A stretch of DNA of 64,000 nucleotides from Truepera sp. (GCA_965218435.1 CBDCKW010000005.1:480001-544000), one strand, 5' to 3'. Shown: positions 2,705 through 50,340, counted from the stretch's first letter. A program made the numbers and translations. The notes: a model not told the origin generated them from the letters alone.

Positions 2705-3310
2705 ATGAAAAGCATTTACTTAATTATTGCAACTGGTATTTTATCTGGGGCCGTTTCTGCTCAAAATGTCAACCTATTTCAAGGAACTATCAATGATCAG
2801 AAGGCGTGTGAGCTAACTATTGATCAAGCGACTGACTTATTGGGTAGACCTAGTGCAGTAGAGGAGGCTCCATTCGAGGAGCTGGCAGCAATTGTTGGCC
2901 CTACACTTTATTACCAAGACGAAGGCATCGAGTTAACGTTCAACGGTCCACAGATAGATCCCGATGAAAAGATTTCTGCCGCCTCTTTCTATCTTACAGA
3001 AGCCACAAACGAATCGACGATGAGTATGACTCCGAGACTCTTTCAACCATTTAAGGGCAAACTCACTCCTTCGGTTAACCCAGATATGAAAGTAGACGAT
3101 ACGGAAACGCTTTTGAAAGAATCAGGTTTTTACTACGAAACAGTTTCTCCAGAACAAAGCCAAGCGTCCATCGAAGAGGCTACCGGTGAACCTGCCACAG
3201 GCCCCTTCTCGTGGCGGGTTCAAGCTCGAAATGGAGATATCTGGTCCAACTATTCACATAAGGGCGTTACTGGGTTCTTAGAACAGGTTTACTTCACTTG
3301 TGAAGGCTGA
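2705..3310 (+). CDS. Secreted hypothetical protein
   Basis: AGGAGA RBS before ATG 2705; signal peptide MKSIYLIIATGILSGAVSA. Confidence 0.7.
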   Translation: MKSIYLIIATGILSGAVSAQNVNLFQGTINDQKACELTIDQATDLLGRPSAVEEAPFEELAAIVGPTLYYQDEGIELTFNGPQIDPDEKISAASFYLTEATNESTMSMTPRLFQPFKGKLTPSVNPDMKVDDTETLLKESGFYYETVSPEQSQASIEEATGEPATGPFSWRVQARNGDIWSNYSHKGVTGFLEQVYFTCEG

Positions 3311-3727
3311 AGCTTCCTTCCCAGGCACCAGAGAGAACCTGGCGAAGCGGTTGGTATCTATTTTCTTGTTGTCTACCAGTTTAGTAATGGCGCAGAGTAA
3401 TTTGTCCTAAGGGTTGCTGGAATGCTCTGCCATATCTAATGTGGAGGATCGCTTAGCGTACTACGACGCCGTCTACTGCGCAAAATACGTGCTAAGCACG
3501 GTTCCCTAAAATAGAAGGTCTAACTACACGACTTCTGTGGTTTCAAGATGACCACAGTGAGCGGCATAACAGCTCTAACAGTCATATCAGCATGTCGGGC
3601 TTTGATTTGTTCGCCTCATCTTCCACTGAAGTCAATTACCAGCGACTGGCCTTATTAAGTTTTCTTTAAGCTTAGTAACTTAGCCTTTGCTAAACTAGCA
3701 CCGAGCACATCACATCATGGAGGCTGT

Positions 3728-5155
3728 ATGCGGCGGATTAGGTGGGTCTACGGATTAGGTTTAGCACTAATGTTAGCGTCTACTCTCGGTGCATGTCAGC
3801 AGGAGAGTGTCAGTACGGGGCCAAGTTCTGACTTGCCAAATATGCCCGGTAGCCCCATTGACTTCACTACCGACCCTAGCATTCTGCGAGGTAAGTGGAC
3901 CGGCGTTGGCGTAAGCGATAACTACGGCGAGACCGCTTTCAGTAGAGATGGGACACTGTTCGTTGCCTGCACCCAAAAAAGTCTGAGCGTTCGGGAGGTT
4001 GCAACGAACACCGAGCGCTTTGGTGTGCCGTGCGTTCAGCCGCTGAGCATGAGCTTCAGCCCCGATGCGAGCTTGTTGGTACTGCGTGATTCACAAATGA
4101 TACGTGTGCTCTCTGCTGAGTCGGGAGAGATGCTCGCTAGCGCCGAATCAAAGACGCTGCCTTACCGCATCACGAACACGCCAGTGTTCAATCCTGAGGG
4201 TTCCCTGTTTGTAACCGACGAGGGGTTCGTAACCAATGAGAGTGAGAAACAGCAACTGCGCCTCTGGCAGTTGACCAAAGAGGCTGATGGGGGGGTCGTG
4301 TTAGCGCCGGGCGCTCCGTTGGGTGCAGGTGGAGGAGTTACTGACGCAGCCTTTAGCTTCGACGGTCGTTACGTCGCCGTTGCTGAGGACGGTCAAATCG
4401 GCCTTTGGAGGGTTGAAGATGGACAGCTCGTCCGTCAGTACAGTAACAACGACAGCACTTACTCCGTCGCTTTCGGCGCTGATAATAGCATCTATATAGG
4501 AGGCGAAAAGACTATCCGCCGCGTCTCACTGACCGGTGACCCGCTTGGTAGCTTTCAGACCGGTGACTTCCATGCCAAGCCGGTGGTCAGCCCCAATGGG
4601 CGGTACCTGATAAGCAACACAAGCAGCTCATCCAATAGGAACCTGCGAATATGGGCTACGGCGGGTGGCGAGCAGGTGACAACCCTCAAAGTCGAACCAC
4701 CTACTGACCCCAACTACGGCTACTTTTATAAACTCGCATTCGACGACGAGCAGAATGTCTACGTCGCCTCGGGCTACGGCGGCGTAACCCGTTACAACCT
4801 CGGTGACGGCACTTCACAAGTCCTGTTGCGGGCTGAGCCATTCACCGTCGCACTTGACCTCACAGCGACTTATGTGGACAAGACCTCTTACAACGTCACT
4901 GGTACCTTTAGGTTTGGTGATAGAACGCCATTACCGGTCGCTGGGAGCGTATGTGTCCCCGAGGGACTAAAGGTGGAAAGCGAAGCACTCGCGGTACTTA
5001 CCTCTCCAAGTATTTGTGAGGTCTATCTATCGGTTGGAGACGATCAGAGGCCTACTTGGACAATTGGTGGTTGGGCACCTTCCGGCTCGCCGCCTGCATC
5101 GGCCTTGACCGTAACCCAAGGTAAGGAGCACTACCGCTTTTGGCTAACTCGTTAG
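3728..5155 (+). CDS. WD40/beta-propeller lipoprotein
   Basis: Lipobox LGAC; repeated AFSxDG/FSPDA/FNPEG/VSPNG blades; GGAGG RBS. Confidence 0.8.
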   Translation: MRRIRWVYGLGLALMLASTLGACQQESVSTGPSSDLPNMPGSPIDFTTDPSILRGKWTGVGVSDNYGETAFSRDGTLFVACTQKSLSVREVATNTERFGVPCVQPLSMSFSPDASLLVLRDSQMIRVLSAESGEMLASAESKTLPYRITNTPVFNPEGSLFVTDEGFVTNESEKQQLRLWQLTKEADGGVVLAPGAPLGAGGGVTDAAFSFDGRYVAVAEDGQIGLWRVEDGQLVRQYSNNDSTYSVAFGADNSIYIGGEKTIRRVSLTGDPLGSFQTGDFHAKPVVSPNGRYLISNTSSSSNRNLRIWATAGGEQVTTLKVEPPTDPNYGYFYKLAFDDEQNVYVASGYGGVTRYNLGDGTSQVLLRAEPFTVALDLTATYVDKTSYNVTGTFRFGDRTPLPVAGSVCVPEGLKVESEALAVLTSPSICEVYLSVGDDQRPTWTIGGWAPSGSPPASALTVTQGKEHYRFWLTR

Positions 5156-8224: not shown

Positions 8225-9760
8225 CTAAGGCTCTTTATCGCTTTTGGGAACTACCCTTACCTCACTAGCGTTTGTAGAGAACGCGTTAGCTAAGTAACCT
8301 TTTCTCGTGAACGCTGAGGGCACGCCTCGTCGGTTTACATCTCGAGTGATGATGAACACGTGATCTCCTGTTTGGAAGACAACTCCACCGCGCGGGGTAA
8401 TGAGCTGACCGTCACGATATATTGCGGCAATAATTACGTCGTGCGACAGGCGAAGCTCTCGTAGTTGCCGTCCCACTGCCAGCGTATCGGATTCGAGAAA
8501 TACATCGAGGACTGCACTACCAGCGGGCGCGATACCACTTAGCTCAATCCGTAAAGGAGCTTTAGGCGGCTCGGGCTTAAGCAGCCCTAAGCGTCTTGCC
8601 AGCGGGCCGATAATAAGCCCTTGCATGGTCGCACTCACAACTACCACAACAAAGACAATGTTAAAGATCGCCTCTCCATTTTCGACCTGGTTTAGCAAGG
8701 GGAAGATGGAGAGGATAATAGGTACGGCCCCCTTAAGCCCAGCGGCGCTGAGCAGCGTGTACTCGCGCCAAGAGAAATCGTGGTGCCGGGTAAACCGTTG
8801 CAACGGCTCGAGGCAAAGGTAGACTGCGAGCGGACGTGCGAGAGCAATCATGATCAGCGTGACGAGCAGCGCCACCGGTAAGATGCCAGGGAGTTGATCA
8901 GGAAACACTAGAAGTCCGAGAAGCAAGAACATCACGATTTGCGCGCCCCACGCGAGCCCGTCCATAAAGTGCAGCAGGTCTTGCCGATAGGGAACACGGC
9001 GGTTACCCACGATCAGCCCGGCCAGGTAGACCGCTAGAAAGCCGTTTCCTCCTATAAGGTTTGTGCTGCTGTAGGTTAAAAGTCCACCAGCGAGAGCCAG
9101 CAAAGGGTAAAGACCGGAACCCTCAAGCTTGACCCGATTTAACAGCCATACCAACAACACACCCCAGAGAAACCCTAGAAATGCGCCTAGCGTGAGCTGT
9201 ACAACGATACCTCCAACGAGCGCGAGCCCATCGGCCTCCCTACTCACTAGAACGGTTGTGAGCGCCATCGTGAGGTAGATGCCGACCGGATCATTTGTCC
9301 CTGACTCGGTCTCGAGTATCCCCCGGAGACGAGCAGGAATTCCTCGGCCTTTAAGCACGCTGAAGGTAGCTGCCGCGTCGGTCGGCGCGAGCACCGCACC
9401 TAGGAGCAGACTTTGCCACACATCCAGAGGTGTGAGAAGCCAAGCGACGCCACCGATGACGAGCATAGTCACAATTACTCCGACGGTAGCCAAGCTTAAC
9501 GCAGGTGCGAGCGAAGCCTTAAAGAGTCGCATCCGGGTTTCTAGACCACCACTGAACAAGATGACAGCCAGCGCAATGAGGCCGACATCTAAGCTCAGTG
9601 CGTAATCATCAAAAACGATCCTGCCGGGACCACTACTCCCGGCCAGCATACCGATGCCCACGAACAAGACCAGCGCGGGTAAACCGAAGCGCTCGGTAGC
9701 GCGGGTGCTTAAGATGGCGGTAACGACCAGCGTACTGGCAACTAGCAGGTAAAGGTTCAT
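8225..9760 (-). CDS. Potassium/proton antiporter (CPA1, NhaP2/CvrA-like) with TrkA-C domain
   Basis: TDAAATFS, ESGTNDP and GLKGAVPI motifs; many TM helices; C-terminal RCK-C domain. Confidence 0.9.
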   Translation of the reverse strand: MNLYLLVASTLVVTAILSTRATERFGLPALVLFVGIGMLAGSSGPGRIVFDDYALSLDVGLIALAVILFSGGLETRMRLFKASLAPALSLATVGVIVTMLVIGGVAWLLTPLDVWQSLLLGAVLAPTDAAATFSVLKGRGIPARLRGILETESGTNDPVGIYLTMALTTVLVSREADGLALVGGIVVQLTLGAFLGFLWGVLLVWLLNRVKLEGSGLYPLLALAGGLLTYSSTNLIGGNGFLAVYLAGLIVGNRRVPYRQDLLHFMDGLAWGAQIVMFLLLGLLVFPDQLPGILPVALLVTLIMIALARPLAVYLCLEPLQRFTRHHDFSWREYTLLSAAGLKGAVPIILSIFPLLNQVENGEAIFNIVFVVVVVSATMQGLIIGPLARRLGLLKPEPPKAPLRIELSGIAPAGSAVLDVFLESDTLAVGRQLRELRLSHDVIIAAIYRDGQLITPRGGVVFQTGDHVFIITRDVNRRGVPSAFTRKGYLANAFSTNASEVRVVPKSDKEP

Positions 9761-9854
9761 TTAGCCTTGCCCAAAATCGTAATCATGAGGCGTGCAGTAA
9801 AGCGCTATAGGAACCGTTTAGGGCCATTGACATAAGATCACTGTAAGACTTCAT

Positions 9855-10299
9855 ATGGACCGATATAAGTTCTGAGCCCGGTATTTACAGATTTGACACT
9901 CCCACGCGCTTTAGCCGTGGGAGTGTCAACGGACTGGGACTTTTGTGCGTCCTGCTCGGTTTCGTCGGCGCTTTCTTTCCGCTTATGCCCAGCAACGTAT
10001 TCGTGATCGTCGCAGCCTGGTGCTTTTCTCGCGGCAACCCTCGGCTCCTCCGGCGGCTGAGACGACATCGGCTCTTCGGACCCGTCCTGAGGGATTGGCG
10101 AGCGGGACGAGGTCTGAGCGCTCGCACAAAGGTCGCGGCGGTAGTCTCGATCACCCTGACCTTCGGCTTCAGCATCGGGTTTGTGATCGAGCGGCCGCTC
10201 ATCAGGTTTCTGCTGGCGCTCTTCGCGCTCGGACTCATTGCCTATCTGATCAAACAGCCTACGAGCCGTCCGCTGCTATCCGGTAAGTCTAGGATATAG
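9855..10299 (+). pseudogene. YbaN/DUF454 membrane protein with disrupted 5' end (TGA at 9873 and a 37-bp insertion at 9893-9929)
   Basis: PLMPSNVF..AAWCFSRGNPRL..HRLFGP..W motifs; frame restored by removing the insertion. Confidence 0.75.
9893..9929. mobile_element. 37-bp palindromic mini-element resembling an IS605 end
   Basis: TTGACACTCCCACG-cgctttagc-CGTGGGAGTGTCAA, perfect 14-bp arms. Confidence 0.65.
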
Positions 10300-10375
10300 A
10301 AGAGCCCCGGTTCGCTGGGGCTTTTAGGGTCGCTTAGCCGGAGGCAGCACGGCTACCGCTCTAAGATAGGGTGAC

Positions 10376-10810
10376 ATGGTGGAGATTGTTCAACAAGACA
10401 ACCCAAGCGCCGAAGAAACAGAGTTCATCTATGGACAGCTCCGCCAGCACAACGCGGCGCATACAGGTCAGCTTTCCCGTAAAAGCTTACACATTTTCGC
10501 TTATGGGGCAGACCAACAGGTCGTCGGTGGGCTGTTCGGCGACATTGGTTGGGGCTGGCTCCATATCGACATCTTGTGGGTTGACGACGCCTATCGGGAA
10601 CAGGGAATAGGGGGCAAATTGCTAGCACAGGCCGAGGCCGAATCGCTAGCGATGGGCGTAGACCGGGGTTACTTGGAGACGACCAGTTTCCAGGCCCGAC
10701 CGTTCTACGAAAAGATGGGTTACGAGGTGTTTGCCGAGCTAGAGGACCAACCGCCGGGGTATACCTGCTACTACCTAAAGAAGATCGGCTTTCGGGGTAG
10801 TAGGCGTTAA
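10376..10810 (+). CDS. GNAT N-acetyltransferase
   Basis: LWVDDAYREQGIGGKLL and ARPFYEKMGY motifs. Confidence 0.9.
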   Translation: MVEIVQQDNPSAEETEFIYGQLRQHNAAHTGQLSRKSLHIFAYGADQQVVGGLFGDIGWGWLHIDILWVDDAYREQGIGGKLLAQAEAESLAMGVDRGYLETTSFQARPFYEKMGYEVFAELEDQPPGYTCYYLKKIGFRGSRR

Positions 10811-10876
10811 CTAAAGAGCCTAGAGCACTGTGTCGCCACCCGTTGTTTTAGTTTTTGAATAGGCGTCTATAGATGT

Positions 10877-11059
10877 ATGACCCGACATAGCGAGGAAAGA
10901 CACGTACACCAAAAAGACGAGCCGGAACTGTTCGAGCACCTGGAAAACCTGATGTTCTCCGGCGCAACGGACGTCGAGGTAGAGGGCCAGACTTACAACG
11001 CTGCGAGAGACAAAGACGAAGACGGTAACGAGTTTTTTGTGTTGACTCCCATAGGTTGA
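10877..11059 (+). CDS. Small acidic hypothetical protein
   Basis: 60-aa ORF of plausible composition; no recognised motif. Confidence 0.4.
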   Translation: MTRHSEERHVHQKDEPELFEHLENLMFSGATDVEVEGQTYNAARDKDEDGNEFFVLTPIG

Positions 11060-32564: not shown

Positions 32565-34727
32565 ATGATGACTAGGGTAGCAAATAAGGAAGCTTACGCT
32601 TATGCAAGTATTACTGAGATCAGTGAAGCGCTACGGCAGGGACACGTTTCACCTGTCGAACTTGTGGAGCTTTGTCTAGGAAGAATCGAACAGCTCAATC
32701 CTAGCCTTAACGCCTTCATTACGGTTGTCGGCGATCAAGCACGGCAAGAAGCCGAAATCGCTGAGCGAGAGATTGTCGCCGGGAACTGGAAAGGGCCACT
32801 GCACGGTGTGCCGGTAGCTTTCAAAGACTTCTTTGATACCGCAGGCATTAGAACAACGGCAGCCTTTGCTCCGTTTGAGGATCGCGTGCCAGCTAAGGAT
32901 GCAGAGGTAGTTACGAAGTTAAAGGAAGCCGGTGCTATCTTGATCGGTAAAACGAACATGCACGAGCTGGGCATGGGTACGACTTCCTTAGATGGCCTTT
33001 TCGGTAGTGTCCATAACCCCTGGAATCACGACTATGTTGCAGGTGGCTCTTCAGGCGGTTCTGCCGCTGCTGTGGCCTCGGGTTTGTGCTACGCCACTGT
33101 GGATACGGACGCTATTGGCTCATGCCGACTCCCAGCGTCTTGTTGCGGCGTTACGGGCTTCAAGGCGACGCACGACCTAATAACCATTGGTGCTAGTTCA
33201 TAGGGAGAACTCAGCAATGCTCATTCTGAAGGGTCAGTTTCAGGATGGAGCTTGTGAAAAAGACGTAGAAGTACGTTGAACATGGCGGTAACGAAGACCA
33301 AGCGCATCTCGATGTAAGCGGCTAAGCGGTGCCAGATACGTTTGAGGTCACAAACAGTTGTCACCATAGAGAGTGCTGTTTCCACCACCATGCGTTCATT
33401 CCAGGTCCCCTTGGCACAGAGTTTGAGATTTTCAGGTACGCCCTTGGCAGCTCTGAAACCCAAGTCCGAGAGCACGATGGTCTGCCCGTCGAAGCACTCA
33501 ATCAGTGGGTGAAACGTCTGGTCGTGCTCGTTCATCCCTGCCCAGTCCCAGCCGACCACCTGACCCAGGTCATTCAAGAACCAACAGAACTTGATGCCTA
33601 CGCTCCACCTCCCCTTGTCTCTGCCTTTCTTGCCTACTTGCTGCTCGCTCCATCCTTGGCGGATGGGGAAGAGCAGTTCGATGGGATAAGAGTCGACTAC
33701 CGTGAAAAAGCTCGGTTTGGCAAGCAATGCCTCACACGAATCCTGATGTGCCCGGAGCAAACGCTGCAAACGTGAACGCTCAGGAAGTCCAGCAAACAGA
33801 TCATCATAGTCGCGCTTGAGCCAACGGTAGAAGGCCCGAAACCCTCTGCCTTTGAGGGCGAACAAGATGCCGATAGTCACAAGTTCGCTCGGATACAGTT
33901 TAGCTTGGGGGTGCTTGGCAAGTTTAGGCATAGTGTCATCGACTTCCATAAAGATACGGATGATAATGTCCTCGGTGGTCATAGGTGCTCCTCCTGTGTT
34001 TGTCGCTATTCACAGTTTCAGAGTTCTCTATGACCGCTTCAACTAGCACCATTGGTTAATAAGCAGCAAAGGGATTCTCGAAAGCGAAGAGGCCGAAGAA
34101 ACCGTTGTTCGGCTGTCTCACACGTCCTTTATGTGTCGCAGTGTCGAGGATGCTGCCATTCTACTAAATGTGCTTGCTGAGGCCAAAGCGACGCCGAACC
34201 AAGCGATCACCGATTACCGTTTAGCGCTTGATATGACCCAAAAGCCGAGTATTGGCCTCGTCCAAAATTTTAAAGCGACCGACGAAGTGCGGCAGGTATT
34301 TATGGAAGCTACCGAGGCGCTGCGCTCTTTGGGTTATTCGACTCGTGACGTTGAAGCACCTTTCGAGTCGGCGTCGTTTGACATTACGAATATGGATAGG
34401 GAGAGAGCGTCGATTTCCGAGGAATTACTTAAGGAGGTGGACGTTCTACTTCTACCTACCCTGACTGAGGCGGTACCAAGTATTGAGAAGGCGCGTGCTA
34501 AAGGGCCGCAAGCGGTCGCGCCTGACAACACCTTCTTCTGTAATTACTATGGCTTGCCAGTCGTAACAGTTCCCTGTGGTTTCAGTCAAAACGGGTTGCC
34601 GCTCGGCCTGCAAATCGTCGGCCCGGCGTGGGGTGAGGACATTGTCTTGGCAGTAGCAAACTGCTTTCAGCAAGCTACACAGTGGCATTTACAACATCCT
34701 GAGGTTTCTAGCCAAGTTGGAACCTGA
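32565..34727 (+). pseudogene. Amidase (amidase-signature family) split by an IS at 33183-34056
   Basis: GPLHGVPVAFKD, GGSSGGSAAAVA and GLPLGLQIVG; rejoins in frame as THDLI-SSKGIL. Confidence 0.9.
33183..34056 (-). mobile_element. IS982-like element, transposase 33221-33982
   Basis: IRs ACCATTGGTGCTAGTT (one mismatch); TAATA duplication; VDSYPIEL, SDLGF and RMVVET motifs. Confidence 0.85.
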
Positions 34728-34743
34728 TTGTAGTTATCTGCTA

Positions 34744-35903
34744 CTCATGTCTTGCACTTATTCAAGGGTTTGAAAAAAGATGTGCTGGTCCGTAGTTTGA
34801 GGTGTGATGACTCAAACCAACCAGCACAGTCATAGTCTACTCAAAACGCTAGAAGCCTTGCTCTGGAATCGCCGTGAAGTAGGGGTGTTCAGGGCGCTCG
34901 TGGCTTTATTTCTCGATTGCAAGCTGCGCACCACCTTGCAGAATCTCAAAGGCATATCGGCCAGTACCGCCAGTCGCTTTTTCAGTTGTGAACACATACC
35001 CGACGGGGTGTTCTGGGCGGAGCTGAACAGCTGGCAGCTAGGGCAGTTCTACCGTTTGCCAAGACGCGGACGACGTGGGGACGTGGTATTGAAACTCGAC
35101 CTGACCTGCATTGAGAAGACCGGCAAGAAGATACCCTTTGTCCGGGTGTTCAACCGCCGCTACGGGATTCAACTGGTAGTGCTGCACGCCTGTTTAGGCG
35201 GACTCAGCTTCCCGCTCGGTTATCGTGTCTACCGAGGCAAAGGCAAAGCGACGGTGGCAGACTTGGCACTTGAGTTGTTGGCAGCGTTTCCAGCCTCGGG
35301 CTGGTTGTCTCGAACCGTAGTTCTGGCGGATGCTGGCTTCGGCAGCACCGAGTTTATTCAGGGCTGCCAGGCTCTGGGTTTCGAACGACTGCTGGTAGGT
35401 ATCCGCTGTAACCGCCAACTCGCTGACGGGCGTCAGCTTACCGAGCTAAGCGAGCGTGGTGAGCAGGTCATGCTCCACGACCTCCCTGTCTTACCACTCT
35501 GGCTCAGCTGGTGCGACGTCAAGCGTGAGGAGGGCAAAAAGCGCTTCTACGTCGCCGCCACCTTTGCTGCCGGGGGTGCCTACCTGGCACGCCGTTATCG
35601 GCAGCGCTGGCTCATCGAATCGTTCTTCAAATCCGTCAAGCACGACTTTGGTCTTAAAGAAGCGCGACTACGCACACAGGTAGGTATCCGGCTGTGGATT
35701 TTTCTGGCCTGTCTCGCGTACAGCTTCGCCAGCTTAGCCCGTCACTTGAGCAAGCAAAACATCACGCTGCTTGAGGCGGCAGAATTCATTCTCGATTCCT
35801 TCACTGATACGCGCCTTATCCACCTGATGATCGACTGTGAGCGCTTTTCTCAAACCAGTCCGCGACGGCTTAAACTGCTGGCTGTATAAGTGCAAGACAT
35901 GAG
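34744..35903 (+). mobile_element. DDE (IS701/IS4-like) element, transposase 34804-35889
   Basis: 17-bp IRs CTCATGTCTTGCACTTA; TGCTA duplication; LDLT, LADAGFG and RWLIESFFKSVK motifs. Confidence 0.85.
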
Positions 35904-43566: not shown

Positions 43567-44139
43567 CTAAAGATTTCGTAGCTCAGTCTGGTATCGCGCC
43601 ACAATGCGCCCAACCGTCGCGGGATGCACGTTAAAGAGTCGTGCTACTTGCGCCGCTGGTCTGCCATCTTGCAAGACCATCACTGCAATCTCTTTCTTCT
43701 GCTGTATCTTGAGCTTCTTTCGCCTACCCCCGGTACGCCCGTTCGCTTTAGCCTCATTGAGTCCTGCCAAGGTGCGCTCGCGGATCAGCGCCCGCTCGAA
43801 GTCGGCGAATACGTCCACCATCTGCATCATCATCCGGCCTGCGGGTGTGGGGGTGTCGATCGCCTCAGTTAAGCTCTTAAAGCCTGCGCCCTCGGCTTCA
43901 ATGCGCTCGAGCAGGGTCAACAAATCCTTAAGACTCCGGCTCAAGCGGTCGAGCTTCCAGACCAAAACGACATCACTGGGACGCAGTTGCCCCAACAATC
44001 GGTGCAGCTCAGGACGATCCCAACGCCCACCTGAAGCGCGCTCGGTAAAAACCGTATCCGCCCCAGCAGCTGTGAGTGCCCGTTCTTACGCTTTGGTATC
44101 TTGCTCGTCGGTCGAGACCCGAGCGTAGCCGAAAACCAT
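43567..44139 (-). pseudogene. Serine resolvase/invertase with premature TAA at 44086-44088
   Basis: GYARVST..A*E..VWKLDRLSRS..FERALIRERT, C-terminal HTH; TGCACAAACC/GGTTTGTGCA inverted repeat upstream may be part of a res site. Confidence 0.9.
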
Positions 44140-44293: not shown

Positions 44294-45250
44294 ATGAAAA
44301 TCAGGAAGAAACGCATCCGCAACCTTGGTTCCAACCTCAGTTTCGTAGAACCAGGCGAAACCATCACCCCTAGTTTTGGTGTTAACGACGCGGTTAGGGC
44401 GAAATTCATCGCACTTGGATTTAGCGATTTGACGCCGGGGGCCACGGTGCTGCCCAAGGTTGTCGGCCCGATTTCGAGGTTCAATGCCGAGGGTAAGGAG
44501 AAAGTGCTTCGGCATCTAGCCAAGGAGACCATGTACCGTCAAGTAGAGTGGCACTGGGTAGAGTTTCATGGCAAAGAGCGGGTCGAAGAACAAGGTATCA
44601 AAGACGTTCCTTACAAGCGTTACCCGCGTGAGTTCATCCCACCCCCGGCAGTTGAGCTAAGCGTTACCACGGATGATGCAGGTCAGCTTTACATCGTTGG
44701 TAGTAAAACGGCCTGTCTACCAGAAAACGAAGATAGCTTACGACACGAGATCAATCTGTTCCTTGAATTGTTCGGGGAGTGCGAGATTCTCAAAGGGAAC
44801 CTCACCGCCTTTGTTCCAAGCAGTCTGAGACGGCTTAACTGGGAGATTCTGCCCAAAGGAAAGCTGCCGTGGGAGAGAATTGCCAAGGCAGCTAAACCCA
44901 CGGTCGAGCGTGCGCGTAAGGGCAGTAGACCCGCGATCTGGGCGCGTCTCGAGACGCTAAACGTGTACCAGCCCGACTTTCACGCGGTAGGACAGGCGGG
45001 CTTTGGCGGCTATATCGTTTTTGGCTTTGAGGAACTAGGTATTTACATTCTCGAAAGCAAAAACTACGGGAACGCAACCTATGTCTTCAAATCGAATTGG
45101 GAAACGCTTTCACAGATGACCAAAGCTGAAATCCTCAATCAAGACCTGCACTATGCCCGTCTCGTTCACCGGACGAGTTGGGCCGAGCAGCTTCGTAAGC
45201 TCCTCCGCGACAACGGCTACGGAAGTGCCGATGAAAAGGTGGCCGCGTAA
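44294..45250 (+). CDS. Hypothetical protein, 318 aa
   Basis: AGGAG RBS; intact ORF whose stop overlaps the next start (TAATG). Confidence 0.75.
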   Translation: MKIRKKRIRNLGSNLSFVEPGETITPSFGVNDAVRAKFIALGFSDLTPGATVLPKVVGPISRFNAEGKEKVLRHLAKETMYRQVEWHWVEFHGKERVEEQGIKDVPYKRYPREFIPPPAVELSVTTDDAGQLYIVGSKTACLPENEDSLRHEINLFLELFGECEILKGNLTAFVPSSLRRLNWEILPKGKLPWERIAKAAKPTVERARKGSRPAIWARLETLNVYQPDFHAVGQAGFGGYIVFGFEELGIYILESKNYGNATYVFKSNWETLSQMTKAEILNQDLHYARLVHRTSWAEQLRKLLRDNGYGSADEKVAA

Positions 45251-45498
45251 TGAGCAAGAAAACAGACCGTTCGGTGTACCGTCGCTCAGACGGTACATGG
45301 GTCAACAAGCAACACGGCAATAGCAATGCGTCGAGTGTTCACGACACCCAAAAAGCTGCAACGGAGGCAGCACGCAATATGCTCGTCAACCAGGGCGGCG
45401 GAGAGCTTAATGTACATGGTAGAAACGGGCAGATTCGCTCGAAAGACACCATCGCACCGGGTAACGATCCGTTTCCGCCAAGAGACATCGAACACTAG
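45250..45498 (+). CDS. DUF2188-like small protein
   Basis: WVNK..ASSVHDTQKAA..AR..GGELNVHGRNGQIRSKDT..GNDPFPPRD. Confidence 0.8.
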   Translation: MSKKTDRSVYRRSDGTWVNKQHGNSNASSVHDTQKAATEAARNMLVNQGGGELNVHGRNGQIRSKDTIAPGNDPFPPRDIEH

Positions 45499-45657: not shown

Positions 45658-46260
45658 TCAGTCTGCTTCAAGTAAAGCTGTCCACCAACCTAGATTCGGC
45701 TCTCTGTGCCCCGGCTTGAAATTTCCACCAATCTGCACATCAAGAAGTACTTCTCGAAGCGCTTCTGCATCAAGTTGAACAGCTTCCGACCACCTCTTAA
45801 GTAAGCCGATGCTTGTCATGACTGAAATGTCTGGCGCTCGCGCTGTAATTTCTCTAATGGCTTTACGGTCATCGGTGACGAATGCCCCGCCTCGCAAGAT
45901 GACAGCCGCGATAGTTTCGGCCTCTCCCTGATCCAAGCTAGCGGCCAAGTCGATCAGCGCCTCTAGCTCTTCGTCCGTGGAAAGCTCAGGTTCGAGATGG
46001 AGGCTACCCGAGGTTAGAGCAGCAGCCAAGTCAACTGAAACGGGTGAGCCTCTCGCCATACCCTTGCGTTCGTAAACGTAAAGCGCCTCTTCATGGGCAA
46101 CCCACGGGGTAACCAAGAACTCGAATTCCAGAACCTCCGCTATTTCCCCGAGTCTCTTCGTGGCGTACAGATTGAGCAGCGCACAGGAGTCTAGATACCA
46201 CCGCTGACGCACTAACGATTCCTGACCGTGATCGCTTCCTCGACGGGCAATGGTGTCCAA
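45658..46260 (-). CDS. PIN-domain ribonuclease
   Basis: YLDSCALLN, V..E, LDQGEAETIA and FVTDDRKA acidic motifs. Confidence 0.8.
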   Translation of the reverse strand: MDTIARRGSDHGQESLVRQRWYLDSCALLNLYATKRLGEIAEVLEFEFLVTPWVAHEEALYVYERKGMARGSPVSVDLAAALTSGSLHLEPELSTDEELEALIDLAASLDQGEAETIAAVILRGGAFVTDDRKAIREITARAPDISVMTSIGLLKRWSEAVQLDAEALREVLLDVQIGGNFKPGHREPNLGWWTALLEAD

Positions 46261-47441
46261 CCTTGATGTCCCTCTTCGTCGAGCGTAAATTGATGGCGAA
46301 ACTCTTCAACGACGTCTCTAGCTAGCAATCGGTTGACACCGAGAAACTGTGCGAGTTGACCTTCGGTGATCTCCTCTTTAAGAAACGCCAAGACTGCAAG
46401 GAGCCGGTAGCGTTCCGGCAGCATGGGTTCTTCGGATAGAGATTCCGTCGTTACTCCGGCGATCTCTTGAGCTTTTCTAACCTTGAGGCCGTCTGCCTTA
46501 AAGCCGTTGACCGTACCGTTCGTAAGTACGCCCATTTCCTCAAGCCTGTAGCCGTAAGCTTCAAACGAAACGCCGTAGTACCGGGCAAAGCGTAAAAGGT
46601 CTCCGAGCGTGAAGTCACCGGCAGTTTGAATATGGGAACGGAGTTGGCGGCGTACCCCACTCTCGGGCAGCAAGAACCTCGAGGCAAAAGCATTCGCAAA
46701 CCGTTCAGACTCGGGATAGCGGTCATAGCTTCTCAGAACCTGTATCTCTGGGTTCATGCGGTTCGTAAGAAAATGTCCATACTCATGCGCTAGAGTCATC
46801 CGCTGCCGGTCGGCTGGGTGCTTGCGGTTGATCGCAATACATCCCCCAAGTTCGTCGGTAAAGCCAAACATCCCAGCGATCTGCGAAGGTAGATCGAGGT
46901 AAAAGATTCTGAGACCGACTTCCGTTTCTAGTAGAGACCGAAGCTCCCCAATGGGACTGTCGCCAAGGTTAAGACGAACCCGCTCCTGTTTAGCGATCTC
47001 GTCAGCAGCGATCTCGACGGGCATACCCGAATACGAATACTCCGCTGGGTAACGTTTGGGCATGGCTGAGCCCATCATAGTTTCGAGCGTCAGGTAGTTC
47101 TCTGCATACTTCTGGAGTAAAGCAACGGCCTGTTCGACCTCGCTTTCACCTACAACGTCCAAAAGCCTCTTCTCAAAGCGTGCGCGGAAGGCGACACTAA
47201 GATCCCCGGTTGGAACCGGACGCCGCAAAAGCATATTCAAATCCTGCTCATAAAATCCAGCAAGCTTCGTCAGGTCGCTGGGCGTTAAGCGTCGCTTCCC
47301 CTGCTCAACGGCGACGAGCGAGGTGCGGGCAATCTCTAGAACCCCGGCAGCATCCTCTTGCGTTTTACCTGAAGCTTTTCGGGCACTCTGAAGTCGCTTA
47401 CCTAAGGTGACCCAATCGATACTTTTTAAGTCAAAAGTCAA
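46212..47441 (-). CDS. XRE-family HTH fused to ImmA/IrrE (peptidase M78) metallopeptidase
   Basis: TQEDAA..IARTSLVAVEQGKR; RQRMTLAHEYGH; E.FANAFA..FLLP; GAGGAG RBS before TTG 47441. Confidence 0.9.
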   Translation of the reverse strand: MTFDLKSIDWVTLGKRLQSARKASGKTQEDAAGVLEIARTSLVAVEQGKRRLTPSDLTKLAGFYEQDLNMLLRRPVPTGDLSVAFRARFEKRLLDVVGESEVEQAVALLQKYAENYLTLETMMGSAMPKRYPAEYSYSGMPVEIAADEIAKQERVRLNLGDSPIGELRSLLETEVGLRIFYLDLPSQIAGMFGFTDELGGCIAINRKHPADRQRMTLAHEYGHFLTNRMNPEIQVLRSYDRYPESERFANAFASRFLLPESGVRRQLRSHIQTAGDFTLGDLLRFARYYGVSFEAYGYRLEEMGVLTNGTVNGFKADGLKVRKAQEIAGVTTESLSEEPMLPERYRLLAVLAFLKEEITEGQLAQFLGVNRLLARDVVEEFRHQFTLDEEGHQGWTPLPVEEAITVRNR

Positions 47442-47455
47442 GGCCCGACTCCTCT

Positions 47456-48871
47456 CTATGTAACATGGCTCGGCAGACGCGGCAAGGTCGCCGAAAACCA
47501 CTCCCATTCACAAACGTAGGTTGTAAACAGCTTAACAAGCTCCTCCGTTACCTCCTGGATGGTCAGGTTGGTTGTGGCGGCGATGGCCATCCTCGCGCTC
47601 ATCAGTTCGGGGAACTCACGTAAAAGACTGGCGAACTTGGCTTTCACGTTCTCCTCATCAAGTGCGTAGCGTAACCGCTCAGCCTGGGTCTCCATGCAGT
47701 GTAAAGGCAACAACTTGATACTGTTAGAAGTGCTCGGCACCGTATGATATACGTCCGTTTCATATGTCTTTTGGTCTCTATCTAGGCTTTCCAAGTTGCC
47801 AGCAGCTAGAGATACTCTTCTTAAAAGGCACGACGTACAGACACCGCACTGCTCTTTTGATCTGGGTTTCCGGCGAGGGAAACCGTCGCATGAGATCGTC
47901 TGAACGGCAAGGTCGCCGAAACCTCGCTCCTGCACCTCAATACACATCTGGCCTTTGGTCTTCCACAAAGATGGGTTTTCAATCTTGATGGGCGTCTCGA
48001 ATAAGTTAGAGGCAAGGGCAGCCATCCGCCTTAGCCCTTCAGGATGCATGGCACGGGTGTAGTCCACGCCTAGACCCGAGACCGTCTGAGGCAAGTTGAT
48101 CGCTCCCACGCCATTTTCGTAGACGTTGAGTGTACTCAGACCAAGAACGCGCGCGACCGAGATGCCGAGTGCCAAAAAGAGAAACCCCCGCGAGCGTTGG
48201 GTTCGCTCTTGTTCCAAACGCCCCTTGCTATAGGCATAGGAGATCGCCTGTTGATCGAGGTGATGATGTAGTGGAACATGGATCAGCTTTTTGCCATCTC
48301 GCTTTAATTTTCGGTTCGTCGCCTCTAAAATCTCACGCTGACGAGTGAAAAGATTGCCGCCGGTGTACGAAGCAACCAAAACACCCGTATCGTGCCCAGG
48401 AATATAGATTTGGCTGACAGCTCCGGCAAACGAATCCAGACCGCCGCTAAACAACCCTACAAACGAACAATCCACCGGCTCATCAAAAAGTGGAACTGCT
48501 ACGCTTTCCGACTCAAGGGGAGCGAACTCGAAAGACCAGGTGTCACCTGTAAAAAAGCCGAGTGCCGCTTCTAGACTCTGTTGCAGGTGAGGTTGCGCCC
48601 AGAAACTACATTTTCTTACCTTCACCTTAAGCTTGAACACTCGACCCGTCATGGCAGTAGCCCAGTCATCCGGGTGGCCGGGCGAACGAGGCGTGATACG
48701 GTCCGCTACATATGCGGCCATAGCGACATCGAGCAGATCTTTTTCAGCTTCTGGCAAATGTGTCATTAGCGTGTGTTCGACGGTGGTCGTATCAATACTT
48801 AGGGCTCGAGCGTCAACCTGCACTGCATCCGTAAAAGACTGCTGCCAAAAAGGATGAGCAAAGTCAATCAT
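47456..48871 (-). CDS. QueC-like (7-cyano-7-deazaguanine synthase family, QatC-like) PP-loop enzyme with N-terminal extension
   Basis: LFSGGLDS, ERTQRSRGFLF, YENG, TRAMHP, NP..WKTKGQM, SC..QCGVCTSCLLRR; about 471 aa, roughly twice canonical QueC. Confidence 0.85.
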   Translation of the reverse strand: MIDFAHPFWQQSFTDAVQVDARALSIDTTTVEHTLMTHLPEAEKDLLDVAMAAYVADRITPRSPGHPDDWATAMTGRVFKLKVKVRKCSFWAQPHLQQSLEAALGFFTGDTWSFEFAPLESESVAVPLFDEPVDCSFVGLFSGGLDSFAGAVSQIYIPGHDTGVLVASYTGGNLFTRQREILEATNRKLKRDGKKLIHVPLHHHLDQQAISYAYSKGRLEQERTQRSRGFLFLALGISVARVLGLSTLNVYENGVGAINLPQTVSGLGVDYTRAMHPEGLRRMAALASNLFETPIKIENPSLWKTKGQMCIEVQERGFGDLAVQTISCDGFPRRKPRSKEQCGVCTSCLLRRVSLAAGNLESLDRDQKTYETDVYHTVPSTSNSIKLLPLHCMETQAERLRYALDEENVKAKFASLLREFPELMSARMAIAATTNLTIQEVTEELVKLFTTYVCEWEWFSATLPRLPSHVT

Positions 48872-49504
48872 CGTTTTCCTCAAGGTCTAGCCCGATAGCA
48901 CTCCTATTGATTCCAAGAGAAACGCTGACCAACTCAGGCTGCGAAGGTTTCTGGTACTTAGGGCGACGGATAGGGGTAATTTTTGGCTTGTCGGAGTTTT
49001 TAGCTAGTTCCTTTGCAGTGGCTTTAAGTTCATCCCGTAACACTTCCTCGCAAGCTCGAAGCTCTTTTTGGGCTTCAGTAATGTCCCTATAAATGTCTGG
49101 CACCCCCCTCACACCCAAAACACCCAAACAATAGACCCGTGGGACTTCGACGCAAAATTCTTCGCATAAGCGTTCTCTAACTTCATCTACTGATTTAGGT
49201 TGCTCTGAGGAAATAAGCATTTCGGCCCAAGCACGCTCTGCTGCATGTAACCTTCACGGGCTAGTTCACTGTTCACTGGGGGTTTCAGCGTCGCCCCCAA
49301 ACGCTCTTCTAAAGGAAGTTGCACAAGTTGCGAGAGCTGCTGCGTCAAAGGTTCCAAAAACTTTGAGCCCGAGGACTTACCCAATTCTTTAGACGTTATA
49401 TGTGCAAGGTACTTCGCTAAGAATTTAGGCCCTTTACGGGCAGCCCTGTATGCCCCGCGCCATCCTTTAGGTAGTGACCTAGATAAGTTATCGCGATCAG
49501 GCAT
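48864..49504 (-). CDS. First gene of the QueC-like operon; hypothetical ~213 aa, apparently frameshifted near 49250
   Basis: AGGAGG RBS before ATG 49504; two overlapping ORFs (49187-49504, 48864-49220); the second overlaps the QueC-like start. Confidence 0.6.
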
Positions 49505-49522
49505 TCACAAGCCTCCTACTTG

Positions 49523-49551
49523 AAAATACTGTAAATGTCGAAAAATGTCAA
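49523..49551 (-). promoter_or_regulatory. Sigma70-type promoter of the QueC-like operon
   Basis: TTGACA-17 nt-TATTTT just upstream of the RBS. Confidence 0.6.
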
Positions 49552-49612
49552 TTTTTATAGTTTAATTTACTCTTAATATTTGACATTGACAAGTCCTGAT
49601 CAGCAGTAATTA

Positions 49613-49644
49613 AAATATGCCGAACTGAACAGTTCGGCATATTT
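49613..49644 (-). terminator. Intrinsic terminator directly after the tRNA-like gene
   Basis: AAATATGCCGAACTG-tt-CAGTTCGGCATATTT followed by TAATT. Confidence 0.7.
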
Positions 49645-49651
49645 CATATTG

Positions 49652-49771
49652 TGACCCTGGAGAGGTTCGAACTCTCGACCTTCCGTTAGTGGTGCCAAGT
49701 TGAGGTACTGCCCCTCAAAAAGTCTTTGAACTTGACTCATACGGGTGCTCTATCCACTAAGCTACAGAGTC
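49652..49771 (-). ncRNA. tRNA-like RNA with a 54-nt structured insert in place of the anticodon loop
   Basis: Acceptor GACTCTG/CAGGGTC; D-arm GCTT-AGTGGATA-GAGC; stem CCGT/ACGG; variable AGGTC; T-arm GAGAG-TTCGAAC-CTCTC; discriminator A; no encoded CCA. Confidence 0.8.
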
Positions 49772-49828
49772 GTATCTACCTTATGGCTATTTTACAGCTA
49801 ATTCGTGCTGAATGCAGTTCCGTAGACA

Positions 49829-50340
49829 TCAAGAAAAGCTGCTGCCCGGTAGCGTTGATGTGTTTACCCGGTACCGCCCTGTCCGGTTCGCCGCGGGCTC
49901 GAGCCCCTCGAGCTGCCCCAGCGCGACGAGCCGTTGCAACGCCTCTGCTGCATTCCGGTGCGAGATGCCCAGCAGCCCCTCGAGCTGCCTGACCGATACC
50001 TCTACCTCACCGTAAGGCTCGAGATAGAGATAAACGAGCTTCGCTGTCTGATTCTCCGCTAGCAACCGTTCGGGGAGTGCCAGCGCCTGCACCTCGGGCT
50101 GACCACCTGGTGAACCGCTCGAGGCCCCTACTGGTGTCCCTCGGCTGTTACTGAGCCCAAGCCCCCGCAACCTCTTGAGTGAGAGCGAAACCGCCCCCTG
50201 GGAGATACCTAATGCTCTGGCAATCTGCCGTTGAGAATAAGCCACAAGCTGCCCGGGCTCTAGCCAGAGGTAAAGCAGTTTAACGATAACGCTCTCGTTT
50301 TTAAGCTCGGCAAGTATAGGGGTCAGCGTGGCGAGTTCGG
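49829..50340 (-). CDS. Tandem winged-HTH protein; start uncertain, possibly truncated
   Basis: Two similar units KLLYLWLEP..SQRQIARALGISQ and KLVYLYLEP..SVRQLEGLLGISH. Confidence 0.55.

Follow-up and report, generated by a model that had tools for sequence, protein, structure and literature searches.

The window analysed here is a 64,000-nt stretch of Truepera sp. DNA (GCA_965218435.1, CBDCKW010000005.1:480001-544000). Its minus strand carries, between positions 49504 and 45658, what we take to be a copy of a four-gene cassette that is widespread among bacteria, has no name as yet and is akin to the Qat anti-phage system. We hold this explanation as a whole at a probability of roughly 0.55. 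The gene order is a partner protein (~210 aa), a QatC-family enzyme, a peptidase with helix-turn-helix (HTH) and M78 domains and a PIN nuclease. The four genes very probably form one conserved functional unit, and by analogy with characterised relatives a role in phage defence or abortive infection is fairly probable.

The first-pass annotation of the window had listed four co-oriented genes that overlap or nearly abut. Order and overlaps were confirmed: successive maximal open reading frames (ORFs; 118, 475, 431 and 200 aa) overlap by 20, 52 and 49 nt. Its first gene, called ORF1 and left without assignment, was not an intact gene but one split into two ORFs by a frameshift. The ORFs of the cassette are the following:

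49504..49187, minus strand: 105-aa ORF, N-terminal fragment of the partner (QatB-analogue) gene; starts MPDRD, with AGGAGG 5' of it
49220..48864, minus strand: 118-aa ORF, C-terminal fragment of the partner gene in a different frame
48883..47456, minus strand: QatC-family PP-loop enzyme, maximal ORF of 475 aa
47507..46212, minus strand: XRE-type HTH plus M78 (ImmA/IrrE) zinc peptidase, 431 aa, with a C-terminal extension of ~100 aa
46260..45658, minus strand: PIN-like nuclease, 200 aa, which is the maximal ORF; the true start may be later

Related loci were collected with an alignment-based pattern scan for the enzyme. In genomes, 211 of 230 candidates were confirmed and the best 80 were taken; a second alignment-based scan gave 80 metagenome loci (160 in total). 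Scans of genome and metagenome contigs with the single protein found no relative, and it was the alignment-based scans that succeeded. The phyla represented included Acidobacteriota, Chloroflexota, Cyanobacteriota, Deinococcota, Gemmatimonadota, Verrucomicrobiota, Nitrospirota and Actinomycetota.

The gene order was highly consistent: across many phyla and on plasmids, the four genes stay together and their ends overlap. In 77 of the 80 genome loci, the next gene after that of the enzyme, read in the same direction, was the M78 gene; the PIN gene came after it in 75 of 80, and all misses (three M78, five PIN) were on contigs ending too soon. Among metagenome loci with room for the respective gene, the partner was adjacent upstream in 66 of 70. 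The other four had a profile match failing the adjacency filter, a rejection caused by over-extended ORF starts. The M78 gene was detected in 53 of 58; of the five misses, four were overlap artefacts and one locus really lacked the gene. The PIN gene was present in 48 of 49. When the flanking ORFs of the 80 genome loci were clustered, no fifth conserved family emerged; the largest cluster, integrase-like, reached 7 of 80 loci. The co-occurrence check that the first pass had proposed hence came out in favour of partner, enzyme, HTH-M78 protein and PIN protein as a unit, but not of the tRNA-like RNA that it had counted in.

The four-gene layout was also found on plasmids of Pseudorhizobium banfieldiae NT-26, Methylocystis rosea and Bosea vaviloviae. 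The RefSeq names of the products there are hypothetical protein, 7-cyano-7-deazaguanine synthase, XRE family regulator and DNA-binding or hypothetical protein. Two alphaproteobacterial cassette enzymes formed a long branch of their own in a quick unrooted tree. Judged from their sequences, the alphaproteobacterial plasmid versions are a second, deeply divergent lineage with the same layout. We observed the very long branch for the plasmid cassettes L170 (positions 3253-3828) and L177 (positions 2824-3393); the partner in L170 starts MMTDGP and not MPDGD.

The pairwise identities of the four proteins were correlated across loci (Spearman 0.56-0.76). Such a correlation is what block inheritance of the cassette would give, and shared host ancestry would add to it. 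The correlation bears on whether the locus holds two independent systems that merely adjoin, a minimal QatBC-like pair and an uncoupled RosmerTA-type pair of HTH-M78 antitoxin and PIN toxin. Both halves have precedents: the QatBC core alone suffices for defence, with the N-terminal Gly of QatB being essential (PMC13279940), and HTH-M78 antitoxins with varied toxins are known as a stand-alone two-gene arrangement (10.1101/2022.05.11.491447, PMC10440598). Moreover, the peptidase matches RmrA models. Still, two uncoupled systems are improbable. Loci with room keep the pairing, and they come from many phyla and from two QatC lineages that lie far apart; the genes overlap and their identities co-vary. 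Defence islands shuffle neighbours, and the flanks of the cassette are indeed unconserved.

No name for the cassette was found, in agreement with the first-pass suggestion of a new system. PADLOC-DB 2.0.0 had no name and no cassette-specific models, and NCBIfam 20.0 (June 2026) named none of the four proteins above cut-off. The literature searched, which included the 2026 Qat/QueC papers and the Cap9 preprint and left out most subscription journals, held no description.

The second gene was annotated at first pass as a long QueC-like enzyme with intact SGGLDS and Cys motifs. This description was borne out and could be narrowed: on sequence comparison, the enzyme belongs to the QatC family and bears the QatC-type catalytic signature. 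It matched the PADLOC QatC model (2.9e-49) and the solved QatC chains 9vlk (3.5e-25) and 9zee (7.8e-21). In the database copy the start is 4 codons further on, which leaves 471 aa. In an alignment of the window protein with 39 relatives (40 sequences), SGGLDS (S146-S151), C332, C346, C349 and C352 were invariant, as were D61, D114/W116, R230/R232, E256-N-G258, P281, T309/K310 and Y374. F120 and F236 were at least 90% conserved, and H280 and P304 (HP and P(x)4TK motifs) were present in the window's own protein. The invariant columns correspond to the motif list given for the QatC cluster by Libby et al. (PMC13329287), namely DxWxxxF, RxRxxxF, ExG, HP, P(x)4TK, a catalytic Asp and a C-terminal Tyr. 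In the quick unrooted tree, five canonical QatC sequences formed one clade (support 100), and 44 cassette enzymes formed a separate clade (support 89) outside canonical QatC. In the viral contigs scanned, the enzyme had no relative.

An ordinary metabolic QueC (7-cyano-7-deazaguanine synthase) would account for the RefSeq product name of the plasmid homologues and for a weak match to Pfam QueC (21.7 bits, cut-off 22). The probability of this reading is close to nil. The match to TIGR00364 reached 16 bits against a cut-off of 150, and in place of the canonical QueC motifs the enzyme has those of QatC (cf. PMC13329287). The enzyme also has long terminal extensions (130 aa N-terminal and 100 aa C-terminal), and neither QueD nor QueE was found near the cassette.

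The gene before the enzyme encodes a single protein in related loci, with a median length of 212 aa. A profile was built from 62 of these upstream proteins. Its positions 1-71 matched the frame of the 105-aa ORF (E 2.6e-12), and its positions 97-203 matched the frame of the 118-aa ORF (E 6.2e-13). Going by these matches, the partner gene in the window is a single ~213-aa gene split by a frameshift. Two sequencing runs come from a single sample, which was probably the source of the assembly, and their contigs agreed with the window sequence. Contigs of runs X3 (lichen metagenome) and X4 (another organism) had 10 extra letters behind plus-strand position 49248, which is exactly between the two profile-matched parts, where the frames change. 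When the frames are computed from the coordinates, the second ORF falls into the frame of the first once ten bases are added, with no stop between them and ~216 codons in all. As the window copy has 10 bases fewer than its relatives, it carries a 10-bp deletion. It is most likely a pseudogene, and the cassette is probably inactive here; a programmed frameshift instead of deletion damage may also explain the split.

The extreme N-terminus of the partner was strongly conserved. In the genome loci, M-[P/A/S/T]-[D/E]-x-[D/E] was found in 64 of 78 upstream ORFs, with MPDGD as the commonest form; the window partner starts MPDRD. A profile search of 1.84 billion cluster representatives (clusters at 50% identity) found 1129 members of the partner family at E<=0.001 and 782 at E<=1e-10. 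The motif stood at residue 1 in 140 of the 150 best representatives, whose starts had been called independently. Proline was residue 2 in 122 of these 150, alanine in 16, serine in 4 and threonine in 1, and four representatives start MDGD. All four common second residues are small, and the initiator Met is usually removed before small residues (Gao et al., PMC13279940). As a whole, the partner evolves fastest among the four proteins: its mean pairwise identity was ~20%, compared with 32% for the PIN protein, 34% for the enzyme and 46% for the peptidase. The partner was predicted to be all-helical (model pLDDT 82), and in sequence searches nothing outside its own family matched it. Because its position, size class, helicity and fast divergence combined with a fixed N-terminus are like those of QatB and homology was not established, we named it a QatB analogue. 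By the same analogy, the partner is the likely substrate of the enzyme, and the modification would be at its conserved extreme N-terminus.

For the third gene, the XRE-HEXXH peptidase of the first pass was upheld. The 431-aa protein matched Pfam Peptidase_M78 (2.2e-22) and HTH_31 (2.3e-10), and HEYGH (H241, H245) and E268 were invariant in 41 sequences. In PADLOC, its best matches were RmrA (8.5e-25) and capP (2.4e-18), with capH at 0.0055; 15 RmrA models matched, with values from 8.5e-25 to 6.2e-9. The NCBIfam spr1629-family antitoxin model gave 54 bits (cut-off 335).

The 200-aa product of the fourth gene had no Pfam match itself, and 11 of 44 relatives matched Pfam PIN. Its AlphaFold model (pLDDT 95) matched the PIN domain of VapC4 in Foldseek (3.6e-4, probability 1.00). 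D24, E113 and D130 were invariant, and N30, E58, D111 and D131 were at least 90% conserved. The Atlas neighbours were DUF3368 clusters, and no RmrT model of PADLOC matched. Sequence and model agree with the earlier call of a PIN nuclease: together they identify a PIN domain, and the protein is a putative nuclease. The last two genes look like a RosmerTA-type pair, consisting of an RmrA-like peptidase and a PIN protein.

The surroundings of the cassette speak for the probable role in phage defence or abortive infection. In 12 of 27 loci, a PADLOC match at E<=1e-25 was found within 6 kb (116 of 288 flank ORFs examined, with ORFs of at least 180 aa). Among the known or candidate defence genes matched were those of Septu PtuAB, type I and type IV restriction, BREX BrxL and AbiEi; further matches included PD-T4-5, PD-T4-6, mad3, capP and PDC-S39. 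In three acidobacterial or verrucomicrobial loci (L015, L017 and L029; ~9130-10990, plus strand), a ~605-aa protein matching PDC-S39 (~1e-43) came directly after the PIN gene.

Cassettes were also found on plasmids and beside integrases, VapBC pairs and transposases; in the window, the DNA of the region is patched together from mobile elements and belongs to a 685-kb replicon. These settings would suit a module for addiction or regulation that responds to stress, is carried by plasmids and integrative elements and is not anti-phage. The M78 protein would then sense DNA damage or redox stress and free the PIN toxin, so that the element is stabilised or growth is arrested; the IrrE-DdrO switch of Deinococcus (PMC7907104) is the model for this. 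We regard such a module as unlikely, since the nearest characterised relatives of the enzyme act in phage defence and known defence genes lie within 6 kb in the 12 loci mentioned above. The two roles are not mutually exclusive.

The locus DNA was absent from all 36 same-family relatives searched (five of the same genus), and one partial match was found among 60 relatives. From this distribution, the cassette appears to be accessory in nature.

If the cassette acts in defence, its four proteins could work as follows. Composition, order, conservation and catalytic motifs were observed; from Cap9/CD-NTase, QatC/QatB, RmrA and CapP/CapH we infer the mechanism. Firstly, the initiator Met of the partner would be removed. 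Secondly, the QatC-like enzyme would activate (adenylate) a carboxylate with ATP, either 7-carboxy-7-deazaguanine (CDG) or another one. Thirdly, this carboxylate would be joined to the exposed N-terminal amine of the partner, constitutively or on infection. Fourthly, the HTH-M78 protein would read the state of the enzyme-partner pair; by analogy with RmrA and CapP/CapH, it would restrain the PIN protein and/or the operon promoter until the protease is triggered. Finally, the PIN nuclease, once free, would cut nucleic acid and abort the infection.

Several points weigh against this explanation. The evidence on the cassette comes from sequence and models, and the specific order of events is tentative and drawn purely from analogy. 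The window copy is broken and hence uninformative on activity. The count of neighbouring defence genes was obtained without a control.

For the partner, none of 51 members matched a PADLOC QatB model, the two QatB models had no match in six frames of the genome and a search of PDB sequences with the partner profile found no QatB chain. With the partner model, Foldseek had no match at E<=0.001 in the PDB, VIA-align reached a best Z of 6.5 with generic helical proteins only and the Atlas gave no usable match; the fold library covered entries up to 8 Apr 2026, and a fold shared with QatB may exist. The N-terminal residue is mostly proline, a secondary amine, and not the glycine of the two known cases. 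The long disordered tail of QatB is missing. A predicted complex of enzyme and partner (Deinococcus pair, alignments A4 and A2), scored at 0.00 without control runs, speaks neither for nor against their pairing.

For the enzyme, the match to the NCBIfam QatC model (NF041925) stayed at 188 bits, under the cut-off of 280. The two threonines of the QatC substrate site are invariant and essential (Gao et al., PMC13279940). In the alignment to 9vlk, T-R-T of QatC corresponded to T-R-A in the cassette enzyme, the second invariant Thr being replaced by Ala.

The substrate is the remaining difficulty. CDG is the substrate of both Cap9 and canonical QueC; which reaction QatC catalyses is left unresolved (PMC13279940). 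In the host genome, which was 100% complete by markers, there was no QueC above cut-off (best 35 bits) and no match to QueD/PTPS. A tRNA-guanine transglycosylase (TGT) was present, its sole copy being chromosomal. By its gene content, the host looks like a queuine or preQ salvager and not a producer. Among 50 carrier genomes, QueC was found above cut-off in 33 and not in 17; one of these 17 was a cultured Deinococcus, and many of the others were incomplete metagenome-assembled genomes. As QueC and QueD were lacking in the host and QueC in 17 of 50 carriers, an endogenous deazaguanine is doubtful as the substrate. The gene inventories indicate that the cassette is not tied to the host's own deazaguanine pathway.

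These points leave room for a more specific idea, which we put forward as a long shot: the cassette could be a third QueC-family immune system, with N-terminal modification as the switch that is read by the protease to release the PIN nuclease. This estimate is a joint one, covering the acceptor and the source of the carboxylate as well. The acceptor would be proline or alanine followed by Asp-x-Asp, unlike any described case. As the host and at least one cultured carrier have no recognisable QueC, the activated carboxylate may originate outside the cell's own pathway. One candidate is a deazaguanine intermediate of a DNA-modifying infecting phage, in which case the enzyme would sense phage metabolism directly. 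Other candidates are a different acid or the partner's own Asp side chains.

Three features on the minus strand were examined upstream of the operon:

49551..49523, minus strand: promoter-like TTGACA-17-TATTTT from a consensus scan, in an AT-rich stretch
49644..49613, minus strand: terminator-like hairpin with 15-nt arms (100% complementary), a 2-nt loop and a T-rich tail after it
49771..49652, minus strand: tRNA-like gene (Rfam tRNA, 47.5 bits), a neighbour and not a component of the cassette

The first-pass annotation had given the operon its own promoter and a same-strand tRNA-like gene about 150 nt upstream. The promoter was not supported: three promoter-like sites were found and 2.9 were expected from shuffles, so that the match carries no weight alone. 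Imperfect TGTCAA/TTGACA inverted repeats (49530-49591; arms of 13-14 nt, 85-86% complementary) flank and overlap the -35-like hexamer. On their sequence they could be a candidate operator for the HTH-M78 protein, or possibly chance in AT-rich DNA. The perfect 15-bp hairpin (49613-49644) sits between the tRNA-like gene and the operon.

The tRNA-like gene itself proved real, with a score well above the Rfam cut-off of 29 and intact acceptor, D and T arms. Its 3' end lies 147 nt before the first ATG, on the same strand as the operon. Its anticodon loop was abnormal: Rfam placed 51 inserted nt there and not a normal 7-nt loop. ARAGORN found no tRNA in normal mode and, with introns allowed, called tRNA-Val(CAC) with a 47-nt insert at position 33/34; in that mode many spurious calls were made in this genome. 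Unlike the host's Val tRNAs, the element has no encoded CCA. No second copy was found in the genome, its fold was not unusually stable (z = -1.13) and neither half had an exact match in the viral contigs.

A 43-nt minor contig, present in both runs from what is probably the source sample and at about a quarter of the depth of the main contig, agrees with the T-arm/3' acceptor part (49653-49685) except for one mismatch and diverges beyond it. Possible sources are a second, unassembled copy of the tRNA-like element and a tRNA of another organism. Two further ideas on the element were rejected. A shared tRNA intron was considered because of a second chromosomal 'tRNA-Val(CAC) with intron' (ARAGORN), which was unlike a tRNA on reading. 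An integration-site duplication marked by the element was dropped, with no partial repeat found elsewhere in the genome.

No link between the tRNA-like element and the cassette emerged from other loci. tRNAs within 6 kb of the cassette were found in 8 of 80 genome loci, in varying places and on varying strands, and only a single one of them is upstream on the operon's strand. In the metagenome loci, with flanks of up to 4 kb to either side, they were found in 2 of 80. A search with nhmmer found nothing like the element in the 80 genome loci. Rfam, run on the 11 loci closest in the tree, detected no tRNA upstream, and one marginal tRNA downstream on the opposite strand. The closest enzyme clade (89-45% identity) is known as proteins only and was not among the loci scanned, and the presence of the element near the nearest relatives could be read only from the contig of run X4. 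This contig (~90% identical, spanning 49232-49900) has the tRNA-like element with the insert at the same place.

The first pass had proposed that the upstream RNA is a tRNA mimic controlling, or targeted by, the PIN RNase via deazaguanine chemistry. Strand, distance (147 nt) and retention of element and insert in the relative from run X4 would be in line with it. Retention in a ~90%-identical relative is expected from common descent alone. Moreover, the element was not found beside the cassette in the 160 other loci, and a strong hairpin and a separate promoter-like site stand between it and the operon. A tRNA mimic is therefore very improbable. The element is taken to be a degenerate or unusual tRNA gene in the surrounding mobile DNA, unrelated to the cassette.

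The window lies on a 685-kb contig of a 4.8-Mb genome (9 contigs). The surroundings of the cassette include a truncated resolvase, transposases, a split amidase gene, DUF6876 and small coiled-coil ORFs. The resolvase ORF (43567-43998, minus strand) matched the Pfam Resolvase profile from position 55 on only. The truncated N-terminus is consistent with a decayed mobile element beside the cassette. Of the split amidase gene, 32565-33203 codes for the N-terminal part (profile 1-174) and 34131-34727 for the C-terminal part (profile 363-445). Between the halves (32565-35889 region), there is a 253-aa ORF without assignment on the opposite strand, and a DDE transposase gene comes after. At 44294-45498 (plus strand), the end of a 318-aa ORF of no recognised family shares base 45250 with the start of an 82-aa DUF2188 ORF. 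In PADLOC, the DUF2188 protein has a match to PDC-S16 (6.7e-22), a candidate single-gene system; the pair is convergent with the PIN gene.

The cassette matters for the understanding of Qat. Three structural papers of 2026 make QatB-QatC the core of Qat and leave unexplained the reaction of QatC and how QatB modification stops phage. The sister cassette couples a QatC-type enzyme to two well-understood outputs, a protease switch and a PIN nuclease, and the PIN effector offers a readable phenotype (toxicity, RNA or DNA cleavage). The distinct N-terminal motif of the partner is a natural comparison for the acceptor and the acid of the enzyme, also in deazaguanine-lacking hosts. Finally, a large multi-phylum family is currently annotated merely as 'hypothetical', 'QueC', 'XRE regulator' or 'DNA-binding protein'.

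Compared with QatABCD (PMC13279940, PMC13376578, PMC13639016), the cassette has an enzyme of the same family, with N- and C-terminal extensions, SGGxDS, zinc cysteines and QatC-specific motifs. As in QatB-QatC, a small, fast-evolving, all-helical partner is encoded directly upstream with overlapping ends, and its extreme N-terminus is conserved with a second residue permitting Met removal. The differences are considerable. QatA (KAP NTPase) and QatD (TatD) are missing, and HTH-M78 and PIN genes are always attached. The partner starts M-P/A-D-x-D and not MGTS, the start of the canonical QatB fetched for comparison; it has ~210 aa compared with 260-290 aa for QatB and is without a long disordered tail. 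The enzyme falls under the NCBIfam QatC cut-off and outside the five-sequence canonical clade of the quick unrooted tree. The canonical qatABCD operons fetched for comparison had a layout quite different from the cassette.

As the first pass had noted for the window, no QatA, QatD or CD-NTase gene was found, so that the gene set fits neither QatABCD nor type IV CBASS (cyclic-oligonucleotide-based anti-phage signalling system). We extended this to the 80 genome loci, where no QatA or QatD neighbour and no CD-NTase or TGT-like (Cap10) neighbour was present. The sole match to a QatD model in the genome was a lone TatD on the main chromosome contig; the QatA model was not run genome-wide. According to Libby et al. 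(PMC13329287), qatA and qatD lie beside only about one-third of the QatC cluster, and KAP_NTPase and TatD are the sole neighbours given for this cluster in Supplementary Table 2 of that paper.

Type IV CBASS (10.1101/2025.04.06.647259) likewise pairs a QueC-family enzyme with a protein partner whose N-terminus is presumed to be the acceptor. It differs by its CD-NTase, Cap10/TGT and cyclic-nucleotide effector, all of which the cassette lacks. Moreover, Cap9 is minimal (~185 aa) and keeps the CDG-binding residues of QueC, whereas the cassette enzyme is of the remodelled QatC type (10.1101/2025.04.06.647259). With RosmerTA, the cassette shares the HTH plus M78 architecture of RmrA in its third gene, followed by a small putative toxin gene with overlapping ends (cf. 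10.1101/2022.05.11.491447, PMC10440598). Unlike RosmerTA, the pair is never alone but part of a four-gene unit, and the PIN protein matches no RmrT model.

The PIN fold and the acidic active-site residues are those of VapC. The cassette PIN protein is longer (~185-200 aa), has extra C-terminal helices and no VapB-type antitoxin, and its nearest automatic clusters are DUF3368. CapH and CapP are a separate HTH repressor and M78 protease encoded divergently upstream of a CBASS operon. The cassette likewise ties HTH and M78 protease to a defence operon, but fuses both in one protein (~400 aa) placed within the operon, between enzyme and effector. The QatC and both QatB models matched the Deinococcus radiodurans control genome. 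Canonical Qat hence seems to occur in this lineage too, the cassette variant being known from further Deinococcus genomes.

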